Positions 34,926 through 48,520 of a DNA stretch of 50,344 nt are shown piece by piece; position 1 is the stretch's first letter, and each line of letters opens with the position of its first letter. Source of the stretch: an uncultured Gammaproteobacteria bacterium (GTDB lineage Bacteria; Pseudomonadota; Gammaproteobacteria; GCA-001735895); NCBI GenBank assembly GCA_937984095.1, contig CALJYH010000055.1, positions 1 to 50,344 of the forward strand, written 5' to 3'. Under the pieces are notes generated by a model. That model ran no database searches and had not been told where the DNA came from. It saw nothing but the letters and a program-made list of their open reading frames with translations. Position numbers and translations under genes: made by a program.

Positions 34926-35585
34926 TCAACTGGTTGGTTTGGCCGTGGTCAAACCAAGATTCGACCAATTCTGCATGCCACCGCGATACCACTTGATCTT
35001 GTGCGCCGGGTAGCCAAACTTGAGCAGGTTCTTGATATTGTTCGGAGACTGACCACACCACATGCCGTTACAGAACATGACCAGGGTCTTCGCGTTGGAG
35101 TAATCCCACAGGCCTTCAAGCGAAGCGGCGCCAAACTGGTCTTCCAGGATTTCGCCAATTGAAATCGGATCAGCACCTTTGGCAGGATTCAAAGCAGTCC
35201 ACGGAATATTAACCGCGCCGGGGATCGTGCCCTTTTGCACCCAGTCAGGCGTGCGTGAATCGACCACCAGAATAGTCTTGTCACCCTTGCTCATTCGAAC
35301 CAGGTAATCAATTATTTCCTGTTCGCCCAGGGTTTCTATTCCAGGGGCCAATACAATTGGCTGAATACAAAACGGCGGGCAGGGCCGTGAAGTCTTGGCA
35401 AAGGCGGGATTAACCACGGCCTTGTTGTTCTGATCACGCATGATCTTCACCGACTTACCACCGTGCATGACGCTGGCTTCTTTCATGGTCGGTGTTATTC
35501 CCACAGGTTTATCGGCGGCCGCGGCGTTGCCAACCCATATCAGGCTGGTGGTCAACATAATTATTTTTAATAGCTTGGGTTTCAT
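34926..35585 (-). CDS. Periplasmic rhodanese-like sulfurtransferase (SoxL-like)
   Basis: Signal peptide, KTSRPCPPFCIQP, GTIPGAVNIP, FCNGMWCGQS, YRGGMQNW. Confidence 0.88.
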   Translation of the reverse strand: MKPKLLKIIMLTTSLIWVGNAAAADKPVGITPTMKEASVMHGGKSVKIMRDQNNKAVVNPAFAKTSRPCPPFCIQPIVLAPGIETLGEQEIIDYLVRMSKGDKTILVVDSRTPDWVQKGTIPGAVNIPWTALNPAKGADPISIGEILEDQFGAASLEGLWDYSNAKTLVMFCNGMWCGQSPNNIKNLLKFGYPAHKIKWYRGGMQNWSNLGLTTAKPTS

Positions 35586-37967: not shown

Positions 37968-38834
37968 TTATTGAGATTCGGCAGTATCGGGTTTGGCCTG
38001 CCCCTGCTTTGACATCATTTCCTGCCATTGCTGGTAGAATTTTTCGTACTGCTTTGGATCCATTATTGTCTGCGGACCCGGTGTCGCGCCGATTGGCGGC
38101 ACGGCACCAGGATGTGTCATCCCGGGCATCTGCGGCATCATCCCCATCGGTGGCATCCCGCCAGGCATTTGCGGCATCATTCCCATCGGTGGCATCCCGC
38201 CGGGCATCTGCGGCATCATTCCCATCGGTGGCATCCCGCCGGGCATCTGCGGCATCATCCCCATCGGTGGCATCCCGCCGGGCATCCCTGGCATCATGCC
38301 CATGCCCGTCATGGGATTCATCATCCCCATCATCGGCGCCATCATCATGCCGGTCATCGGGTTCATCATCATACCCATCGGTGCCATCATCCCGGTCATC
38401 GGGTTCATCATCCCCGTCATAGGTGCCATCATCCCGGTCATCGGATTCATCATCCCCGTCATTGGCGCCATCATCCCGGTCAGCGGGTTCATCATTCCAG
38501 TGGCAGCATCACCGTAGGCCTGGGGATTAGCCATGTGCATCATCGGATTCATCGCCTGCATCATGCCGCCGTAGTCCTTCTGATAGCGCGCAATATCCTC
38601 GTTGTCGTGGCATTCGACACAGGATGAAATCAGCGGTTGGCCCTGTAATTCGCCACTCATCATGCTATTCATGAGCTTGATCCAGACATTCGGATCCATC
38701 GATTTTTGCATGGCATACGACATTTCCGGGTCGGCTGCTGCGGTATTGTCCGTTGCTTCATCTGCCGCCATCGATACCGATGTTGTCAGGCCCAACAAAA
38801 CGGCTAACAGTAATTTTACAATGCTGGTATTCAT
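37968..38834 (-). CDS. Secreted Met/Pro/Gly-rich repeat protein with a CxxCH motif
   Basis: CAGGAG RBS, signal peptide, CVECH at residues 72-76, about 71 Met in 288 aa by my count. Confidence 0.8.
   Translation of the reverse strand: MNTSIVKLLLAVLLGLTTSVSMAADEATDNTAAADPEMSYAMQKSMDPNVWIKLMNSMMSGELQGQPLISSCVECHDNEDIARYQKDYGGMMQAMNPMMHMANPQAYGDAATGMMNPLTGMMAPMTGMMNPMTGMMAPMTGMMNPMTGMMAPMGMMMNPMTGMMMAPMMGMMNPMTGMGMMPGMPGGMPPMGMMPQMPGGMPPMGMMPQMPGGMPPMGMMPQMPGGMPPMGMMPQMPGMTHPGAVPPIGATPGPQTIMDPKQYEKFYQQWQEMMSKQGQAKPDTAESQ
38130..38285 (-). repeat. 4 x 39-bp coding tandem repeat (MPGGMPPMGMMPQ)
   Basis: Four copies identical at protein level, differing only at synonymous positions. Confidence 0.95.
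38304..38495 (-). repeat. 9 x ~21-bp coding tandem repeat (MM[N/A]PMTG)
   Basis: Units of 6-8 aa with strict Asn/Ala alternation. Confidence 0.9.
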
Positions 38835-38886
38835 TAGGTGTACTCCTGAGTACTTGTGAGATGCCTATAACGGCAGCCTAAAATTG

Positions 38887-39810
38887 TTAAAAATCGCCGG
38901 TCGCGGCGCCTTCCATGATGTAGCGCATACCGTCACGAATTCTGATCGCTTCCGTGCGTAACTCTTTATCCAGAACACTATTCGGATTCTGCGCCAGGTT
39001 GAGCCAGTTCACATCCCAGTCCAGGGTCATCACCCAGAGCTTGCCTTCCGCATCTTCGAGCAGTGCGATACGGCAGGGAATGAAGACGATAAACTCCGGC
39101 GCATAGTCGAGCACCTTGCGTGCCACCATGGCATCACAGAAATTAAAAATTTCTACCCGGGGAGTCTCTTCGCCGGTAATTGCAGTAATGTCTTTCCAAA
39201 GCGGACTGTGCCCGACGAACTTGAAATTTATTTCATTGGCGCGTAGGCGCATGGATTCTATTGCGTCGTCAAAGGAAACATCTTCGGCCACCGGCATCTT
39301 GTCTGCCATGATCGAAATCATGTCACGCAACGATAACGGGCTCAGCATCATCATGCTCTGATACAGGTTTCGCTTGGCCTCGTCCGAAATCGAGTCCGAT
39401 ACGGTGTTGGCTGGAACGTCCCGTTTAGTTTGCGAAGGTATCCACATCCGGGCCTGGTTAGACCCGCCGAACATACCCTCCAGCATTTGCGTATTGGCAG
39501 CGCGCAGCATTGCATCGAGAATGTTAAAGCGGGTGGCTTCGTCAATCGGTGCGTTCATGAAATGATTCGCCATCATCATCATCCACTGCATGTTCATCCA
39601 TTCCGAGGACATTCCCTGCGCATTGATGTTGGAGGTTATCGAAGGTGCGGTGTTTGCCATCCACGGGAACAGGTAAAAAGGATTCTGCAGGGGGCTCGCA
39701 GGCGCAGCATTACAACCCGGTTCCCCTGCAGCGCAATTTTCCTGACTTATCGCGGGATGCATAGATAACGACAATGCGACCGTCATTATTGCGATAAAAC
39801 GAACCAACAT
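38887..39810 (-). CDS. Exported DUF302 domain protein with Met-rich N-terminal extension
   Basis: Signal peptide; C-terminal EIFNFCDA...FIPCRIALLED. Confidence 0.82.
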   Translation of the reverse strand: MLVRFIAIMTVALSLSMHPAISQENCAAGEPGCNAAPASPLQNPFYLFPWMANTAPSITSNINAQGMSSEWMNMQWMMMMANHFMNAPIDEATRFNILDAMLRAANTQMLEGMFGGSNQARMWIPSQTKRDVPANTVSDSISDEAKRNLYQSMMMLSPLSLRDMISIMADKMPVAEDVSFDDAIESMRLRANEINFKFVGHSPLWKDITAITGEETPRVEIFNFCDAMVARKVLDYAPEFIVFIPCRIALLEDAEGKLWVMTLDWDVNWLNLAQNPNSVLDKELRTEAIRIRDGMRYIMEGAATGDF

Positions 39811-40090: not shown

Positions 40091-40453
40091 ATGACGATGA
40101 AACAAGTTACCAGCGGAATAGTATCAATGACACTATTTTGCTGTATTTCGATTTTGGGCGGCATTTCGGTCGCGAACGCCGATGCTATCGCTGATGGCAA
40201 GAAAGTAGCATTCGATCGTAAGAAAGGCAATTGTCTGGCCTGTCATGCGATAGCCGGCGGTTCGCTGCCTGGAAATATCGGCCCACCGTTGATTGCCATG
40301 AAGGCACGCTTCCCTGAAAAAGCCAAGCTGCGAGAGCAGATCTGGGACTCGACAGCCGCCAATCCTAACACCATCATGCCTCCTTTCGGCAAACACAGAA
40401 TATTGACAGAAAAGGAAGTGGACCTGGTTACAGAATTTATCTACACCCTTTAG
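40091..40453 (+). CDS. soxX: Sulfur oxidation c-type cytochrome SoxX
   Basis: KKGNCLACH, GNIGPPL, MPPFG; GAGGAGG RBS before ATG 40091. Confidence 0.95.
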   Translation: MTMKQVTSGIVSMTLFCCISILGGISVANADAIADGKKVAFDRKKGNCLACHAIAGGSLPGNIGPPLIAMKARFPEKAKLREQIWDSTAANPNTIMPPFGKHRILTEKEVDLVTEFIYTL

Positions 40454-40487
40454 GCCCGCATGAAAATATCGCACGAGGAAATTTAAG

Positions 40488-40958
40488 ATGAATCTTTTAC
40501 GTCGCAAGTTTATTAAAACGGCCGCTTTTGTCGGCGCCACGGTATCGGCCGTCGGCACGGGAATTTTGATTCCCCAACGCGCACTGGGTGCTTATACCAA
40601 GGCAGCCTTTGATGCCAAGGACGTCAGTGGTGCACTGACTGCAGCCATGGGCACGGATCAGCATACTGCCTCCGATGCAATCAAGCTGAAAGCACCGGAC
40701 ATCGCCGAAAACGGTGCAGTGGTTCCGATAACCGTGTCATCAACCATGGGAAATATTGACGCCATCTCTATTATTGCATCAGCTAACGACTCACCCATGA
40801 CTTCAACCTACATGCTGACTTCCGCCTGTGAGCCATTTGTTTCCACCCGGATCAAGATGGCCAAAACCTCCGACGTTCTCGCCGTGGTCAAGGCGGATGG
40901 CAAGCTCTATTCGGCTGCAAAGGAAGTCAAAGTCACCATTGGTGGTTGTGGCGGTTAA
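40488..40958 (+). CDS. soxY: Thiosulfate carrier SoxY
   Basis: Tat motif RRKFIK, APDIAENGAVVP, C-terminal VTIGGCGG. Confidence 0.97.
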   Translation: MNLLRRKFIKTAAFVGATVSAVGTGILIPQRALGAYTKAAFDAKDVSGALTAAMGTDQHTASDAIKLKAPDIAENGAVVPITVSSTMGNIDAISIIASANDSPMTSTYMLTSACEPFVSTRIKMAKTSDVLAVVKADGKLYSAAKEVKVTIGGCGG

Positions 40959-40989
40959 TTTCAGACATTAAAGAATTGGAGAATTAAAC

Positions 40990-41301
40990 ATGGCTTCTAT
41001 AAAGATTCGCGCAAAGGCAAAAGACGGCGTTACAACCGTCAAGACATTGATGAGTCACCCGATGGAAACCGGGTTGCGCAAAGACTCAAAAACCGGCAAG
41101 AAAATTCCGGCCCATCACATCACCGAGGTTACCGCGGAGCACAATGGCAACACCGTTATGACTGCAAACTGGGGTGGTGCTATTTCGAAAAATCCATACC
41201 TTTCGTTCAAGTTCAAAGGCGCCGCCTCGGGTGACAAGATCAAAATCACCTGGGTCGATAACATGGGCAAAGGTGACAGCGCCGAAGCCGCAATCAAGTA
41301 A
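40990..41301 (+). CDS. soxZ: SoxZ
   Basis: HPMETGLRKD, SKNPY. Confidence 0.97.
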   Translation: MASIKIRAKAKDGVTTVKTLMSHPMETGLRKDSKTGKKIPAHHITEVTAEHNGNTVMTANWGGAISKNPYLSFKFKGAASGDKIKITWVDNMGKGDSAEAAIK

Positions 41302-41337
41302 ACCGCGGTCATAAAATAATACTGAGGAGGAACTGTC

Positions 41338-42171
41338 ATGAATAAACTAATTACGACCCTGGGGATTGCTTTACTGGTTGCGTTGCCTTTCAACGGCATG
41401 GCAAGCCCACAGCAGGACCTGTCAGAGTTTCGGGATTACTACGAGAAACGTTTTCCGGGCACCCCTTTCGATGATTTTATCAACGGTGTCTACTCAATCG
41501 ACCCGGTAACCCGCGAACAATGGGAAGAAATCGAAGAATTTCCACCCTACGAGTTAGGCCTCAGCAAGGGTGAGGAGTTGTTCAACAAGCCGTTTGCAAA
41601 CGGCAAGACTTACGCCAGCTGCTTTGAAAATGACGGCATTGGTATCCGCCAGAACTATCCCTACTTCGATACCGATCGAGGCGAAGTCATTACCCTCGAG
41701 CTGGCAATCAACGAATGCCGCGAAGCCAATGGCGAGAAAAAATTGAAGTGGAAGAAAGGGCCAATCGCATTTATATCCGCCTACATGGCCTATACCTCGC
41801 GCGGCAATATAATTGACATCAAGATTCCGGATGATCCGCGTGCAGTTGCCGCCTATGAACGCGGCAAAAAACACTTCTACCAGAAGCGCGGTCAGCTCAA
41901 TATGGCCTGCGCCGATTGCCACAAGTTTTATGCCGGAAGCATGGTGCGCGCCGACTTGCTGAGTCCCGCATTGGGGCACTTGAGCCATTTCCCGGTATAT
42001 CGCTCCAAATGGGGCGGCATGGGTACCACGCATCGTCGGTATGGTGGTTGTAACAAGCAGGTACGGGCCAAGGACTACCCGGCACAAAGTGAAGAGTACC
42101 GCGCGCTGGAGTACTTCCATACGTACATGAGCAACGGACTCGCAGTCAACGGACCCGGCGCCAGAAAGTAA
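41338..42171 (+). CDS. soxA: SoxA, monoheme type
   Basis: RGQLNMACADCH, FPVYR.KW, RY.GC..QVRA, LEYFHTYMSNG; first heme site degenerate (YASCF). Confidence 0.95.
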   Translation: MNKLITTLGIALLVALPFNGMASPQQDLSEFRDYYEKRFPGTPFDDFINGVYSIDPVTREQWEEIEEFPPYELGLSKGEELFNKPFANGKTYASCFENDGIGIRQNYPYFDTDRGEVITLELAINECREANGEKKLKWKKGPIAFISAYMAYTSRGNIIDIKIPDDPRAVAAYERGKKHFYQKRGQLNMACADCHKFYAGSMVRADLLSPALGHLSHFPVYRSKWGGMGTTHRRYGGCNKQVRAKDYPAQSEEYRALEYFHTYMSNGLAVNGPGARK

Positions 42172-42194
42172 AACGAATCAAACCTTGATTTTAT

Positions 42195-42224
42195 AATGCC
42201 GGGCTTTTGACCCGGCATTTTTTT
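42195..42224 (+). terminator. Rho-independent terminator after soxA
   Basis: AATGCCGGG-CTTTTGA-CCCGGCATT followed by a T run. Confidence 0.88.
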
Positions 42225-42417
42225 ATCCCCAAAGGGGTAGCCCACTATCAAACAGGGCAGTTTTATCACCCTTCCAATTAAACTATGGTTGACACTTATT
42301 GTTTAAGGCTGTTCTATCGTCTGGTTGATACAGATCAATGAGTGCTGGCAAGAAATCTTTAAAACACTAACTTGCCTGATATACGAAACGTTTAACCAGC
42401 AGAGGAATAAATTGAAT

Positions 42418-42648
42418 ATGTCCGAATTTACCGAAAAATTTGATGCCACCGGCCTCAACTGCCCCCTTCCCATTCTGAGATCGAAGAAGGTCCTCAGTTC
42501 GATGAATAGTGGCGACGTGCTCTATGTCATTGCCACCGACTCGGGTTCAGTCAAGGATTTCGATGCCTTTTGCAAGCAAACCGGAAACGAGCTGCTGGAT
42601 AGCTCGGAAGCCGACGGCAAGTATCACTATTACATCAAGAAGGCCTGA
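42418..42648 (+). CDS. tusA: Sulfurtransferase TusA
   Basis: DATGLNCPLPIL, ATD.GS..DF; ATG 42418 after AGAGGA. Confidence 0.93.
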   Translation: MSEFTEKFDATGLNCPLPILRSKKVLSSMNSGDVLYVIATDSGSVKDFDAFCKQTGNELLDSSEADGKYHYYIKKA

Positions 42649-42686
42649 GATCGTTACTCAGCGCCTAAAATATTCCGGAGTGAAGT

Positions 42687-43166
42687 ATGTCTGAGAAAAA
42701 ACTGGCGCTGATTGCCACCAAGGGAACCCTGGACTGGGCCTACCCTCCTTTCATCCTGGCATCTACCGCGGCCGCCATTGGTTACGAGGTACAGATCTTC
42801 TTCACCTTTTACGGTCTCCAGTTACTTAAAAAGGACATGAACCTCAAGGTTTCGCCGCTCGGCAATCCCGGCATGCCGATGCCGATGGGCATGGATAAAT
42901 GGTTTCCGACCATCGGTACCGCCATCCCCGGCATGGAAGCCATGATGAGCAGCATGATGAAATCGAAGATGAAATCCAAGGGCGTCGCCAGCGTTGCCGA
43001 ACTGCGTGAATTGTGCCAGGAAGCTGATGTCAAGCTAATCGCCTGCCAGATGACGGTGGATTTGTTTGACATGCAACCAAGCGAATTTATCGACGGCATC
43101 GACTACGCCGGTGCGGCCACCTTTTTCGAATTTGCCGGGGAATCAGACGTCAACCTGTTTATCTAG
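42687..43166 (+). CDS. dsrE2: DsrE2-like sulfur relay protein
   Basis: KGTLDWAYPPFILASTAAA, FFTFYGL, IACQMT; adjacent to tusA. Confidence 0.88.
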   Translation: MSEKKLALIATKGTLDWAYPPFILASTAAAIGYEVQIFFTFYGLQLLKKDMNLKVSPLGNPGMPMPMGMDKWFPTIGTAIPGMEAMMSSMMKSKMKSKGVASVAELRELCQEADVKLIACQMTVDLFDMQPSEFIDGIDYAGAATFFEFAGESDVNLFI

Positions 43167-43212
43167 CAATCACTATTTCTATAAATCAAGCGAACACGAG
43201 GAGGCAGTTATC

Positions 43213-44583
43213 ATGAGGGTTCGACTTAAGTTTTTCAGCATGGCTTTACTAGCATGCACATTTCCAGCATCGGTCTGGGCCACCAACGGTTATTTCAGTC
43301 ACGGCACCAGCATCGCGGAAAAAGGCATGGCCGGTGCCGGCGTCGCCTATTCACAGGACACACTCGCCGCAGCCAACAATCCTGCCGGCATGGTCTGGCA
43401 GGGAGCCCGCTACGACATCGGAGCGGCCTTGTTTGGACCAATGCGCGAATACAAGGCTACAGGCAGTCCATCGGCCCCGGCGGGATCGCCATGTGGTCCC
43501 TGCCCCTTCAGTATCGGTGACGGCGATCAAAGCATTGATAGTGAAAACGAAGCTTTTCTGATCCCGCAATTTGGTTACAACTGGGTAATCAATGACGACA
43601 GCACTGTGGGTGTTTCGGTCTTCGGTAACGGCGGCATGAATACCGAATACAAGGACGGAACGGCCATATTGGGACCGAATCCAATAACGGGATTGAACTT
43701 CGAAGCGCCCGGTACCTTTGGTGACGGCACCACCGGTGTGGATCTGGCACAACTGTTCATTGCCACGACCTATGCAGCAAAGATCAATGAAAATACTTCC
43801 TGGGGTATCAGCGGAATCATTGCCTACCAGCGTTTTGAAGCCAAAGGCCTGGCAAATTTTAGTCCTTTTTCTTTGGATCCGAGTAACCTAACCAACAATG
43901 ACCACGATACCGCAACCGGTTTCGGCATACGGCTTGGATTTCAGACTGAAATTTCCCCGGGGGTTCGCTTTGGCGCCGCCTATCAACCCGAAATTGATAT
44001 GAGTGAATTCGATGACTACGCCGGCCTGTTCGCGGAAGATGGCGATTTTAATATCCCGTCGAACTTCACTGTCGGTTTGGCAATCGATGTTCGGGATCAT
44101 GGTGTCCTGGTCGTCGATGTACAGCAAATCAACTATGAAGATGTGGATGCAGTATCCAATCCGATAGAGCCACTCACTGACGGCAGCTGTGCAGCCGGTG
44201 CGGGCGCCGGAGGCAGTGGAGTCGGTGACGGTTGCCTCGGTGGTGACGATGGTGCCGGTTTCGGCTGGGAAGACATGACCGTCGTTAAAATTGGCTACCA
44301 GTGGCAGGACGGCGACATGACATGGCGCGTCGGTGTAAGTACAGGAGATCAACCCATACCCAGCAGCGAAGTCGTGTTTAACATTCTGGCACCTGGTGTT
44401 GTAGAGGAGCATATTACCTTCGGCTTTACCAAGCAGATTGATGCACAGAGCTCGTTCAATTTCGCCGCGATGTATGCACCCAGTGTTTCAGTAGACGGCA
44501 CCAACACTTTCGATCCAAACCAGGAAATCGAACTTGAGATGGATCAGTACGAGCTCGCATTTACCTATAACCGCAGGATATAG
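43213..44583 (+). CDS. OmpP1/FadL family outer-membrane channel
   Basis: Signal peptide, ATNGYFSHG, GMAGAG, NNPAG, GNGGMNTEY, GFGWED, NILAPGVVE; GAGGAGG RBS. Confidence 0.88.
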   Translation: MRVRLKFFSMALLACTFPASVWATNGYFSHGTSIAEKGMAGAGVAYSQDTLAAANNPAGMVWQGARYDIGAALFGPMREYKATGSPSAPAGSPCGPCPFSIGDGDQSIDSENEAFLIPQFGYNWVINDDSTVGVSVFGNGGMNTEYKDGTAILGPNPITGLNFEAPGTFGDGTTGVDLAQLFIATTYAAKINENTSWGISGIIAYQRFEAKGLANFSPFSLDPSNLTNNDHDTATGFGIRLGFQTEISPGVRFGAAYQPEIDMSEFDDYAGLFAEDGDFNIPSNFTVGLAIDVRDHGVLVVDVQQINYEDVDAVSNPIEPLTDGSCAAGAGAGGSGVGDGCLGGDDGAGFGWEDMTVVKIGYQWQDGDMTWRVGVSTGDQPIPSSEVVFNILAPGVVEEHITFGFTKQIDAQSSFNFAAMYAPSVSVDGTNTFDPNQEIELEMDQYELAFTYNRRI

Positions 44584-44619
44584 GCACTCACGCTGTAAAC
44601 TCAATCTACTACTTAAAAT

Positions 44620-44645
44620 GGGCAGCTGCGGGATAGCAGCTGCCC
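44620..44645 (+). promoter_or_regulatory. Intercistronic stem-loop without U-tract
   Basis: GGGCAGCTGC-GGGATA-GCAGCTGCCC. Confidence 0.55.
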
Positions 44646-44674
44646 GACTTCAGGCAACACTCGACTTTACTCTG

Positions 44675-45640
44675 ATGAAACGATCCAGACTTTCAATTCT
44701 GCGCAGTACCTGCAGCATATTGTTGTTGCTCAGTCTTGGCTCTGCCGCCATCGCAGCTGACACGCTAAAGCCATTCATCCTGGCCGGCAGTATCGAGGGA
44801 GATCAACCAGGCAAGGCTCGCGCAGGCATCGTCTCCAGCCTGCAGAACGCTGGTTTTGAGGTCATCGGGCAATACTCTCCTTACCAGGAAGCAGATGTCG
44901 TCATCTTTACTCATTCAGTATTGCGCGACCTGGCCACGCGAAGTGCACGCGGTGGTTACGGCGCCACTCTGAGAGTTTCACTCACCCGTAACAATGACAA
45001 AATCGAAATCGCGTATACCAACCCGCATTACTGGGCGAATGCCTACCGCATGCAGGCTGATGTCGAAACGATTGCATCTCAATTGAAATCCATTCTGGGA
45101 TATGAGAAGCCATTTGGTAGCGGCGATCTGTCACTGACCGCCAGCGATTTGCGCAAGTATCACTACACCTTCATGATGGAGTATTTTGATGATCCCAGCG
45201 TGTTGAATTATTTCGACTCGCACGAACAGGCAGTTATGAGGGTACGTGACAACCTGGCCAGGCAGGTCGGTGCCTCAACCCAGGTTTTTGAACTGAAGCT
45301 GGGTTCCGATACCAAAGGAAAACAGATGACCCTGTTCGGGGTCGGACTCAGCGGCTCCGATGAGGAGGATTGCAGCAGCGATGCGTACATCATGAACCGC
45401 ATCGACAGGGATTCACCCCGACATACCGCTCACCTGCCCTACGAGATTCTGGTTTATGGAGACCAGGCAGAAGCGCTCTATGGCAGATTCAGGATTGCAA
45501 TTAGCTGGCCCCACTTACCGATGATGGCAAGCGATACAGGCGCTACCTTTTTCAGTATTATGTGCGCGCCTGGCGCAATCCAGGATGTGTTAACTAAAAT
45601 TGCTGGAGGCAGCATCACCAGGTCCGGTAGCGAGAAGTAA
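44675..45640 (+). CDS. Conserved periplasmic hypothetical protein
   Basis: Signal peptide (AIA-AD), LRKYHY..MMEYF, HLPYEILV, FRIA..WP; start inferred at ATG 44675. Confidence 0.75.
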   Translation: MKRSRLSILRSTCSILLLLSLGSAAIAADTLKPFILAGSIEGDQPGKARAGIVSSLQNAGFEVIGQYSPYQEADVVIFTHSVLRDLATRSARGGYGATLRVSLTRNNDKIEIAYTNPHYWANAYRMQADVETIASQLKSILGYEKPFGSGDLSLTASDLRKYHYTFMMEYFDDPSVLNYFDSHEQAVMRVRDNLARQVGASTQVFELKLGSDTKGKQMTLFGVGLSGSDEEDCSSDAYIMNRIDRDSPRHTAHLPYEILVYGDQAEALYGRFRIAISWPHLPMMASDTGATFFSIMCAPGAIQDVLTKIAGGSITRSGSEK

Positions 45641-45671
45641 TGCTTCAATTTGAAAGGGTGTATTAGAGTAT

Positions 45672-46817
45672 ATGCAGCTAGATCTTTATTCACAGTCTCT
45701 GCTATGGGCGTTCGGGCTTTCCATCGTTTTCGGTGCAATCGCCAACAAGGCTAACTTTTGCACCATGGGCGCGGTTTCCGACTGGATTAATATCGGCGAT
45801 CACAACCGCATGCGCTCGTGGCTGCTGGCAATCGTGACTGCAATTATTGGTGTCGGAATTCTTGAATACTCAGGCTCCATCGACCTGTCGTTGACGACCA
45901 GCAACGATACCTCCAATCCACCCTATCGCAGCGCTAACTTCATCTGGCTGCGGCACCTGCTGGGTGGATTGATGTTTGGGATTGGCATGACGCTGGCGAG
46001 CGGCTGCGGCAACAAGACCCTGGTGCGCCTCGGCGAAGGCAATATGAAGTCGCTAGTGGTTCTTGCAATCATGGGGATCGCCGCCTGGTGGATGCTATTT
46101 TCCAATTTTAGCTACCTGGCATTCCTGCAATGGATGCTGCCGGTCAGCATTGATTTTTCGAACCAGGATATTCCGAGTCAGGATATTGCCGCAGTAGTGT
46201 TTGGTCTCGCTGGCTACGAATGGGGAGCCAGCGACGGGTTGGTGGTTGCTCTGGTCGTGGCAGTTCCGTTGCTGATTTGGATCCTCCGTTCACAGGATTT
46301 TCGATCCAATCTCGAATTGGTATCGGCAGGCCTGATCATTGGCTTGCTGATCGTTATTGGCTGGTATGTCACAGCCGGTCCGGGTGGCCTGGAACTTATG
46401 GATGAGCTCGAATTCATGGATGACCGGCCCTTTTTCACCGGCGCACAATCGCTCACTTTTATTGGACCGACTGGCCACATTGCGCAATACTTGAAAGAGG
46501 GTTTTTCCGCAATTTTTCTAACCTTTGGCGTGGCGACGGTACTCGGTGTCGTGGTTGGCTCGTTTCTGTATACCCTGATATTTCGCAAAGTCCGAATTGA
46601 ATGGTTTGTATCCTGGAATGATTTCCTGATGCACGCTATCGGTGCCCTGTTAATGGGTATTGGCGGGGTGCTGGCGATGGGTTGCACCATTGGCCAGGGA
46701 ATCACCGGCGTCTCGACCCTGGCGCTGGGGTCGATTCTGACGATCGTCGCGATCATCGCCGGCAGTGCGGCAACCATGAAGTACCAGTATTACCTAATGA
46801 TGCGTGAAGATGACTAG
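45672..46817 (+). CDS. YeeE/YedE family sulfur-compound transporter
   Basis: Three conserved Cys motifs NFCTMG, ASGCG, AMGCTIGQG; multiple TM. Confidence 0.92.
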   Translation: MQLDLYSQSLLWAFGLSIVFGAIANKANFCTMGAVSDWINIGDHNRMRSWLLAIVTAIIGVGILEYSGSIDLSLTTSNDTSNPPYRSANFIWLRHLLGGLMFGIGMTLASGCGNKTLVRLGEGNMKSLVVLAIMGIAAWWMLFSNFSYLAFLQWMLPVSIDFSNQDIPSQDIAAVVFGLAGYEWGASDGLVVALVVAVPLLIWILRSQDFRSNLELVSAGLIIGLLIVIGWYVTAGPGGLELMDELEFMDDRPFFTGAQSLTFIGPTGHIAQYLKEGFSAIFLTFGVATVLGVVVGSFLYTLIFRKVRIEWFVSWNDFLMHAIGALLMGIGGVLAMGCTIGQGITGVSTLALGSILTIVAIIAGSAATMKYQYYLMMREDD

Positions 46818-46946
46818 ATGGGATATACCGACCAAAACCTGTTTTTGCTAGGCTACGGGCATTGTTAGCCATCATGCTGATAGCGAGAACTAAAACTTGA
46901 AACGATCTTTGCGCCAATTTGAAATTGTAGAAACCAGGAGATTCCG

Positions 46947-47144
46947 ATGAACCAGGCTTATCGTGACGCAATCACCCAAATGGAAGAAATGAAAGTACAG
47001 CAGGAATATATCCTCGGCTGGCAGGGCGGTTTTCTCGGGCATCCACAACGCGAAGAACAGCGTCTTACCGAAGCCTACGAAGCTGGCTACGAAGACGGTA
47101 GCGCCAAATCTTGCGACAATTTTTCAAACTGGATCGACTCCTAG
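46947..47144 (+). CDS. Alvin_2107 family small sulfur-oxidation protein
   Basis: 65 aa, YI.GW.GG..G.P.REEQR...AYEAGY.DG pattern recalled for this family; CAGGAG RBS. Confidence 0.75.
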   Translation: MNQAYRDAITQMEEMKVQQEYILGWQGGFLGHPQREEQRLTEAYEAGYEDGSAKSCDNFSNWIDS

Positions 47145-47701
47145 GTTTCGAAACTAACCAGTCCAGCCAACGAACGTTTCAAAGCCACTTCGATTTCAGG
47201 CGCCTCCCTGCCGACAATATAGTCGGGTATCCAGCGACTGTCGCGTTCGCCCATGGTCTCTTTCACGCGGTCTCCAAGACGACAGCGCATTGCGAAGCTG
47301 CCGCCTTCCGCCTCGCTGAAGCCGTAATCCGCATAGTCCGCTGAACGCTGGTTGATCTTGCTGATAAAGTCAGCCTGGTACTCAGCCTCGCCCTGGACGT
47401 CAATTCGGCTATCTTCCAGCATCCGCGCCAGGTCCTTAACCAGACAGCTGATGAATTCAACACGTTGATCCTGGCTAGCCTTCGGATATACCCAGCGATC
47501 GCAGAAATGTACCAGGTAACAAACCGTTTCCTCCATGATATCGACCCGCTGACTCTGTGTGGCGGTTTCGAAATTTTCATTTTCCATGTTCAGCACAACG
47601 TTTGCCGCGAGCTTCCATATCGTTGCACTGATGGCATTTGCCATCTGCGCCGGGGACCTCGGCCGCGCGTTCTGGTTCCAGCTTTTCTTGACTCTTACCA
47701 T
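47141..47701 (-). CDS. Conserved hypothetical protein
   Basis: 186-aa helical ORF convergent with the Alvin_2107-like gene. Confidence 0.7.
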   Translation of the reverse strand: MVRVKKSWNQNARPRSPAQMANAISATIWKLAANVVLNMENENFETATQSQRVDIMEETVCYLVHFCDRWVYPKASQDQRVEFISCLVKDLARMLEDSRIDVQGEAEYQADFISKINQRSADYADYGFSEAEGGSFAMRCRLGDRVKETMGERDSRWIPDYIVGREAPEIEVALKRSLAGLVSFET

Positions 47702-47722: not shown

Positions 47723-48520
47723 CTAGTTACGATGCGCGTCAAGCCACTCGGTAACTTGTCGCACCAGGGCGTCTTCATGGCCCTGGAAAAAATGATTCGC
47801 CCCATCGGCACGAACCTGCAGGTATTGACGACCCGATTGTTTTTTGCCTGACAGGGCTCGTTGTTCGACAGAATTGAGTACCGGCTCGAGATCCTCGCTG
47901 CCGTACAAATCCAGTACCGGAACCCGAACCTTTGCCAGTGCCTCGAGGAGATCGACGAAAGCGTTTCCCGCCCCCATGCCGATAATGACCAGCGAGTCTA
48001 CCGCATTGGCCTCGCTTTGCGACAGGTAATAAGTTGCCATCGAGGCACCCATGCTGTGAGCGACAATGGTGATATTTTTGTAGCCCTCGTCATCCAGGAA
48101 ATCGAGGGCAGACTCGAAACGCCCGGGCACCTCGGGAAACAGTAACCCGTATTCTCGTTCATCGGCATCGTTGGCCAGAATCGGCATCTGCAACGACAGC
48201 GTGGTAATGTCCTGTTCGAGCAAACCCGCACGCAAGGGGTAAATGACATCGGGCCAGTTCGGGTGCACTCCGATGCCGTGAACCAACACCACCGCACGAC
48301 CCGAGCTCTTGTCACCCTCGGTCAAGATGCTCAGAAACTCGTGTCCAATATCATCGATCAGCCATTGCTCGTCCCCATCCAGCAAACCGTCGATCACCTG
48401 CTCCGCCCAACGACTTTCCTTGGCAACGTCAGAATTAGTCGCACTGACTGGTGTTAATGTAGATACTGCCAGCAGGATAAATAATACAAGTCCGGGTTTA
48501 ATAAATGTCTTTAACATCAT
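47723..48520 (-). CDS. Secreted DUF3530-like alpha/beta hydrolase (paralogue of 32855..33637)
   Basis: KESRWA, HGIGVHPNW, TLSLQMP, AHSMG, VLDLYG, GANHFF. Confidence 0.8.
   Translation of the reverse strand: MMLKTFIKPGLVLFILLAVSTLTPVSATNSDVAKESRWAEQVIDGLLDGDEQWLIDDIGHEFLSILTEGDKSSGRAVVLVHGIGVHPNWPDVIYPLRAGLLEQDITTLSLQMPILANDADEREYGLLFPEVPGRFESALDFLDDEGYKNITIVAHSMGASMATYYLSQSEANAVDSLVIIGMGAGNAFVDLLEALAKVRVPVLDLYGSEDLEPVLNSVEQRALSGKKQSGRQYLQVRADGANHFFQGHEDALVRQVTEWLDAHRN

Follow-up and report, generated by a model that had tools for sequence, protein, structure and literature searches.

By what route elemental sulfur, which is insoluble in water, passes the outer membrane, and how sulfane sulfur is delivered to the cytoplasmic oxidation machinery, are unsolved questions; the available text of a 2024 study describes the mechanism of sulfane-sulfur import as not yet clear (PMC11094781). 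Six genes that may bear on this stand in the window, a stretch of 50,344 nucleotides that is contig 55 (CALJYH010000055.1) of a metagenome-assembled genome, 62.7% complete, from an uncultured, sulfur-oxidising marine gammaproteobacterium (GCA_937984095.1). The six genes lie at 42418-47144:

42418-42648, plus strand: tusA-family sulfur carrier, 76 residues (PF01206, 80.7 bits against a cut-off of 28.6).
42687-43166, plus strand: dsrE2, 159 residues with a Met-rich insert (NF047629 over its full length, 1-159, 310.8 bits against a cut-off of 210; PF13686, 187.7 bits).
43213-44583, plus strand: FadL/TodX-type outer-membrane barrel, 456 residues, of a deep, sulfur-linked subfamily (PF03349, 48.9 bits against 29.7; subfamily profile, structural model and linkage).
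44675-45640, plus strand: secreted protein of 321 residues, putatively tandem DUF302-like (PF03625 matches of relatives, fold matches and adjacency to the barrel gene; its own sequence has no Pfam or NCBIfam match).
45672-46817, plus strand: YeeE/YedE-family inner-membrane protein, 381 residues (PF04143, 205.2 bits).
46947-47144, plus strand: Alvin_2107-family small protein, 65 residues (NF049856, 100.3 bits against a cut-off of 60).

The gaps between these genes are, in order, 38, 46, 91, 31 and 129 bp, in agreement with an initial annotation of the window that had described six co-directional genes directly behind soxXYZA, separated by short gaps. We read the unit, with a probability of roughly one half, as an operon that handles zero-valent sulfur across the whole cell envelope, with a promoter of its own that is probably oxygen-responsive. 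In this model, the FadL/TodX-type barrel (hereafter the channel) would let hydrophobic sulfur species, S8 or polysulfane, cross the outer membrane; the secreted protein would take them over in the periplasm, the YeeE-family protein would pass the sulfur across the inner membrane, and DsrE2 and TusA would receive it in persulfide form and hand it on to the reverse Dsr pathway. This genome also has dsrA, as a fragment truncated by the end of its contig (189.7 bits); soxB was not found, from which we draw no inference as the genome is only 62.7% complete. Gene families, folds and recurrent linkage were computed here; what we infer is the transported species and its direction, the contacts between the proteins, co-transcription and regulation.

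The recurrent linkage of the channel to sulfur genes carries this reading. The class was sampled with 400 genomes, at a requested completeness of at least 90%. The channel turned up in 103 of them and DsrE2 in 153; 91 hold both and 12 only the channel, so that DsrE2 occurs in 91 of the 103 channel carriers versus 62 of the 297 other genomes. The corresponding odds ratio of 28.7 overstates the association, since the sampled genomes are interrelated, a point that weakens the case. For 82 genomes the positions of channel and DsrE2 were both listed; in these, the two lie within 500 bp of each other in at least 20 (at least 10 family codes), within 3 kb in at least 29 (at least 14 family codes) and within 10 kb in at least 31 (at least 16 family codes). 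The secreted protein was found in 84 of the 400 genomes, of which 63 have the channel and 77 have DsrE2; where channel and secreted gene are both present, they are no more than 500 bp apart in 39 of 63 genomes, representing 25 family codes. The secreted protein is thus the tightest partner of the channel.

Linkage was then followed outside the genus. A scan of species-representative genomes yielded 79 loci, 71 of them outside the genus, and by tblastn these 71 hold dsrE2 in 19 cases, tusA in 12, sox genes in 15 and the secreted gene in 11. For neighbour clustering, the scan loci minus duplicates were combined with five loci of other families, giving 691 open reading frames (ORFs) from 79 loci; here the recurrent neighbours of the channel are DsrE2 (19 loci), the secreted protein (16), an M48 peptidase with tetratricopeptide repeats (14), soxX (12), soxA (9) and a canonical FadL paralogue (8). 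In eight of the 79 clustered loci the channel lies near a PhsA/PsrA-like molybdoenzyme, accompanied in seven by its iron-sulfur and NrfD partners; the best NCBIfam match of these molybdoenzymes is thiosulfate reductase PhsA, at 198-519 bits and below the 694 cut-off. The gene orders vary. In a Marinifilum locus (L092), psrA-psrB-psrC, a YeeE split into two halves, a rhodanese and the channel are all co-directional, and two Labilibaculum loci share its neighbour clusters; in another locus (L085) the secreted gene lies within a psr-like operon, and a deltaproteobacterial locus combines a split YeeE, MarR, DsrE2, TusA, the channel and the secreted gene. In a Methylomicrobium locus two short ORFs stand directly behind the channel gene, one matching Sulf_transp weakly, slightly short of the Pfam cut-off, and one matching DUF6691 (135 bits). 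Most genomes of the genus itself lack the secreted gene (see below), and we had considered it an insertion; this was dropped, since it is the commonest neighbour of the channel elsewhere. In 14 loci of other families, soxX and tusA have the M48 peptidase gene between them (for example L024, 3645-5126, and L047, 636-2090).

These neighbourhoods bear on the nature of the substrate. The channel might admit another sulfur-related hydrophobic compound, such as organic polysulfanes, volatile organosulfur or a lipophilic thiol, instead of inorganic S8 or polysulfide, and the linkage data show only that the substrate concerns sulfur-carrier genes; channel carriers that have no DsrE2 also exist. However, the Psr/Phs-like reductases, rhodanese, YeeE and Sox proteins encoded nearby act on inorganic sulfur, and no organosulfur-degrading enzyme is found among neighbours recurring in at least four loci. 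A feature of the secreted partner that would suit an organic ligand is described next; on balance we consider such a substrate improbable.

The secreted protein and its 16 aligned relatives have an N-terminal hydrophobic leader. It has 3100 database relatives, and all of the 120 matches listed are nameless or called "hypothetical protein". The window protein itself gives no match to PF03625 (DUF302) at E values up to 1, but five of the 17 relatives do, with a best E value of 1.4e-5, and in the nearest Atlas clusters 26-38% of members carry PF03625. Its structural model (predicted local distance difference test, pLDDT, 84.5) matches the DUF302 structures 7tj1, 1q9u and 1j3m with a probability of 1.00 and target template modelling (TM) scores of 0.58-0.67, each match covering about 120-130 of the 321 residues. 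We read the protein as a probable tandem of DUF302-like domains. The protein and its aligned relatives have no invariant cysteine, so covalent carriage of sulfur appears unlikely and non-covalent binding of a greasy ligand would be likelier, which also fits the organic-sulfur alternative. A complex prediction for the channel and the secreted protein, made without controls, scored 0.00 in both runs and gives no answer as to their contact.

Within the genus, the channel query matched 26 of 36 genomes, 22 of them strongly, and the usual order is soxXYZA-tusA-dsrE2-channel-yeeE-Alvin_2107. In three genus genomes of 91-97% completeness, neither the channel nor DsrE2 was found with the queries used. 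The yeeE gene follows the channel in 18 of the 20 genus loci readable that far. Among 21 readable genus loci, the secreted gene is intact in four (one copy cut by a contig end), frameshifted in one, reduced to a 60-residue remnant in one and absent from 15. The initial annotation had inferred one component per compartment, which the families and signal peptides make plausible, although the secreted gene, for the periplasm, is intact in only those few genus loci. A full-length yeeE beside the channel was found in this genus only: among 76 non-genus loci none was found there, and split YeeE pieces lie near the channel in six. One contig recorded as Acidimicrobiia (L036) has the genus-type order tusA-dsrE2-channel-secreted gene-yeeE at 63-85% protein identity; the label is probably a binning error.

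We next consider the channel itself. Its single-sequence match to PF03349 covers residues 24-270 only, the N-terminal half, whereas a profile of its subfamily (59 members) matches TodX over the full length (E value 4.7e-29), and also TbuX, CymD and, at about 1e-6, E. coli FadL. The AlphaFold model (pLDDT 91.9; predicted TM score 0.87) has 14 long strands, preceded by helices at residues 34-62 in the position of an N-terminal plug. In a Foldseek search with this model, the top 24 rows are all FadL-family structures, with E. coli FadL and TodX the best (E values of 1e-27 to 1e-20, TM scores of 0.6-0.7). Across the 59 subfamily sequences N56 and A58 never vary, and P57 is kept in at least 90%. 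The Asn-Pro-Ala of E. coli FadL occupies mature positions 33-35, according to the names of the PDB entries N33A, P34A and delta NPA, and Asn56-Pro57-Ala58 of the channel would fall at the same mature positions if the signal peptide is cleaved, as predicted, after Ala23. The channel resembles FadL, TodX, TbuX and CymD in its signal peptide, in the 14 long strands and N-terminal plug of its model, and in its Asn-Pro-Ala. It differs from them in being only 14-18% identical to the solved members, and in having sulfur genes and the DUF302-like protein as genomic partners rather than genes of fatty-acid or aromatic catabolism. In a tree of 98 sequences, built by a quick method, a branch of 3.41 substitutions divides the subfamily from a pair made up of the outgroup, a canonical FadL paralogue, and a further divergent paralogue of FadL type (L043_1). 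Judged by its sequence, the channel is a member of PF03349 on an uncharacterised deep branch. Two outcomes that the initial annotation had named as fatal to its proposal, a grouping of the channel with fatty-acid or aromatic importers and a lack of linkage to sulfur genes elsewhere, did not materialise; the branch sets it apart from the canonical paralogue, and the neighbourhoods together with the 400-genome sample show the linkage in many lineages. A cysteine pair, C326/C341, was tried as a mark of sulfur linkage and is not diagnostic, being present in 18 of the 29 sequences with sulfur linkage and in 10 of the 30 without. The canonical FadL/TodX paralogue (PF03349, 197-401 bits) shares loci with the sulfur-linked channel in L041-L043, L047, L053, L057 and L024, and L053 holds a third FadL-like copy besides these two.

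Several observations weigh against a zero-valent sulfur operon of this scope. The closest solved relatives of the channel are aromatic-hydrocarbon channels. By our tally, about 41 of the 71 non-genus loci are devoid of known sulfur genes over a distance of about 7 kb, on contigs some of which are short. Whole clades of the tree, namely Marinobacter, Halomonas and methanotrophs, Nevskiales, some Bacteroidota and sponge symbionts, have no DsrE2, TusA, Sox or secreted-protein gene near the channel, and a PF13686 gene is missing altogether from four of five genomes checked that have such an unlinked copy (Marinobacter koreensis, Halomonas rhizosphaerae, Ca. Methylomicrobium oryzae and a Shewanella metagenome-assembled genome). 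To these are added the loss or absence of the secreted gene in most genus loci, the missing invariant cysteine of its product, and a strong hairpin (44620-44645, below) that parts the channel gene from the genes downstream. Taken at face value, the first of these points would suit a channel that takes up hydrophobic nutrients in general (lipids or hydrocarbons) and whose place among sulfur genes is functionally meaningless: the channel belongs to PF03349, its closest solved relatives are TodX, TbuX and CymD, and homologues 43-48% identical to it occur in Marinobacter, Halomonas, an Alcanivoracaceae metagenome-assembled genome and methanotrophs with no DsrE2, TusA or Sox nearby, in genomes of which four of five lack PF13686 wholly. 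Within these same clades, Psr-like and split YeeE genes lie near the Marinifilum and Labilibaculum copies, and a short YeeE-type gene stands behind the channel in two Methylomicrobium loci. A meaningless placement is difficult to reconcile with the adjacency to DsrE2 in at least 10 family codes (at least 16 within 10 kb), with the excess of DsrE2 among channel carriers, with sulfur neighbours that recur in varied gene orders and different phyla, or with the canonical FadL paralogue that coexists in eight loci; we regard it as the least probable of the explanations considered here.

Whether the six genes form a unit of their own was assessed from the signals around them:

40091-42171, plus strand: soxX (a cytochrome c), soxY, soxZ and soxA, the upstream unit, identified as ORFs; the order soxXYZA-tusA is kept in genus relatives.
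42195-42224, plus strand: intrinsic terminator after soxA, a 9-bp G+C-rich stem (42195-42219) followed by a T run, from the terminator scan; kept in 10 of 10 aligned genus relatives.
42223-42267, plus strand: conserved block of about 45 nucleotides directly behind the soxA terminator, with many invariant alignment columns and two TATC...GGG half-repeats.
42325-42338, plus strand: FNR/CRP-type palindrome TTGATACAGATCAA, 80 bp before the tusA start codon; a perfect copy in six of 10 relatives.
44620-44645, plus strand: strong stem-loop lacking a U tail, in the gap that separates the channel gene from the secreted gene, a 10-bp stem with eight G-C pairs (-27.3 kcal/mol, z -4.09).

The soxA stop codon is at 42171, and the conserved terminator lies in the 246-bp spacer between soxA and tusA; because of it, the unit from tusA to the Alvin_2107-family gene, although physically behind soxXYZA, is probably transcribed separately from sox. 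The palindrome TTGATACAGATCAA is the sole perfect TTGAT-N4-ATCAA in the 50-kb window, where 0.11 would be expected by chance. We take it to be a putative promoter element of the tusA unit, and the distance between it and a TAAAAC hexamer would be consistent with a promoter of the class II activated type. In the available text of a study of a nematode ectosymbiont, rhd, tusA and dsrE2 rise under anoxia, a response that an FNR-type box before tusA fits (PMC8269255). An Rfam search of 42100-47300 gave a chance-level match only, and none for the conserved block at 42223-42267. A sigma-54 promoter before tusA, judged by eye in the alignment of relatives, was unsupported. A Crp/Fnr-family regulator gene adjoins the channel gene in one locus (L022), and the same neighbour cluster occurs in four loci overall.

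Inside the unit, the plus-strand scan found no convincing U-tailed terminator, only stems of 5-7 bp, as the initial annotation had also reported (over the whole scanned region, the scan returned 15 sites versus 9.4 expected). The hairpin after the channel gene is another matter: a stem-loop of differing sequence occurs at the same place in four of the five genus loci with the secreted gene, once with a U run, and because of it the co-transcription of all six genes is putative. Contigs from two libraries, whose RNA status is a guess, bridge soxA-tusA-dsrE2, the channel gene and secreted gene, and the secreted gene and yeeE, from which a single transcript is not demonstrable. In two libraries recorded as RNA, short pieces of tusA, its leader and yeeE match the window letter for letter, whereas the channel 3′ end is represented by a piece that differs by one letter; in both, DNA carry-over is possible.

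The position behind soxXYZA also raises the matter of direction. The same apparatus could work outward or both ways, with zero-valent sulfur from a truncated periplasmic Sox system leaving through the channel or being exchanged with extracellular deposits, and with the cytoplasmic carriers merely co-regulated. FadL-type channels are passive, and some linked copies come from records under the names Ectothiorhodospiraceae, Thioalkalispiraceae and Thiohalomonadales, members of which deposit sulfur outside the cell. Yet the conserved terminator splits the unit from sox, the cytoplasmic DsrE2 is among the tightest partners of the channel, and the neighbours found in other phyla, Psr/Phs-like reductases, are consumers of external sulfur. 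Inward transport is favoured because of these Psr-linked versions, and outward or two-way traffic seems to us unlikely, about as much so as an organic substrate. Returning to the envelope-spanning operon for zero-valent sulfur, the dedicated route for elemental sulfur or polysulfide that the initial annotation had suggested thus gains from the sulfur-gene linkage of the channel, and its substrate and direction are still our inference. Based on these results we speculate, more tentatively than for the operon itself, that the FadL-type barrel and the secreted double-DUF302 protein might constitute an undescribed uptake system for elemental sulfur in several phyla, used by sulfur oxidisers (with DsrE2, TusA and Sox) and by sulfur reducers (with Psr/Phs-like enzymes), in which DsrE2 would be the cytoplasmic catcher of the delivered sulfur.

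Parts of the unit resemble known systems. The tusA product scores below the E. coli TusA equivalog NF001423 (60 against a cut-off of 78), and a Cys-Pro-x-Pro stretch, which we take to be the defining mark of TusA, is visible in its sequence. As in the rhd-tusA-dsrE2 cluster of Allochromatium vinosum, at least in the available description, tusA is followed directly by dsrE2, dsrA is present in the organism and an Alvin_2107-family gene is nearby (PMC11094781). Unlike that cluster, the window unit has no rhodanese gene, the nearest lying at 34926-35585 on the other strand, and the pair is extended by the outer-membrane channel, the secreted protein and the YeeE-family gene. A relay through TusA and DsrE2 was taken as known in the initial annotation, but DsrE2 is not an established relay step: the same source, in its available text, calls its role unclear and doubts its membrane anchoring (PMC11094781). 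The YeeE(TsuA)-YeeD(TsuB) thiosulfate uptake system (PDB 6leo, 8j4c) is similar in that a Sulf_transp membrane protein with two Gly-Cys motifs is encoded with a TusA-family protein. The two Gly-Cys motifs of the window YeeE align with those of Spirochaeta thermophila YeeE, but at a score of only 36 bits; the protein falls short of the TsuA/YeeE equivalogs (NF052577, 87.5 bits against 400; NF041049, 58.4 against 645), and tusA does not adjoin yeeE. On these profile scores, it is a PF04143 member of a subfamily other than the TsuA equivalogs. SoxT1A and SoxT1B of Hyphomicrobium denitrificans are presumably YeeE/YedE-type proteins as well. They are candidate sulfur importers encoded near sox and cytoplasmic sulfur-oxidation genes, with transport unproven, and in contrast to the window unit no outer-membrane or periplasmic partner is described for them in the available text (PMC11094781). 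For the outer membrane, a FadL-family protein of Chlorobaculum tepidum, CT2230, has been speculated to carry hydrophobic sulfur chains; as far as the available text goes, the suggestion is based on a shared regulatory motif and not on linkage to tusA, dsrE2 or yeeE (bioRxiv 10.1101/172254). It is the sole related statement that we found in the literature, where no paper joining FadL with dsrE2 and tusA came to light (subscription journals and supplements were outside the scope of the search).

Two pairs of genes flank the region. Divergent from soxX is a possibly associated pair:

37968-39810, minus strand: secreted Met-rich DUF302 protein (38887-39810) and secreted Met/Pro/Gly-repeat protein (37968-38834).

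The former has 307 residues, is rich in Met in its N-terminal part, carries DUF302 (38.7 bits) in its C-terminal part, and is the only PF03625 match of the genome; as a paralogue of the secreted protein at 44675-45640 it was rejected (hhalign probability 0.3). The latter consists largely of Met/Pro/Gly repeats (NPMTGMM and GGMPPMGMMPQMP units) and is conserved beside the sox and tusA genes of the genus. Met-rich stretches are thus shared by this protein, its DUF302 neighbour and DsrE2, and in one relative (genome G011, locus L031) the Met-rich DUF302 gene and the Met-repeat gene stand co-directionally behind yeeE. On the other side, a gene for a 186-residue protein of no known family (47141-47701, minus strand) overlaps the end of the Alvin_2107-family gene convergently by 4 bp and is followed by a DUF3530 alpha/beta hydrolase gene (47723-48520, minus strand); both are syntenic across the genus.

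For the crossing of the outer membrane by elemental sulfur and its delivery to the cytoplasm, the window locus and its relatives name candidates for each layer of the envelope, and from them follows a testable role for both DsrE2 and a DUF302-type protein. Carriers of the channel have been cultured, among them Labilibaculum filiforme and a Marinifilum strain, which have the reductase-linked version.

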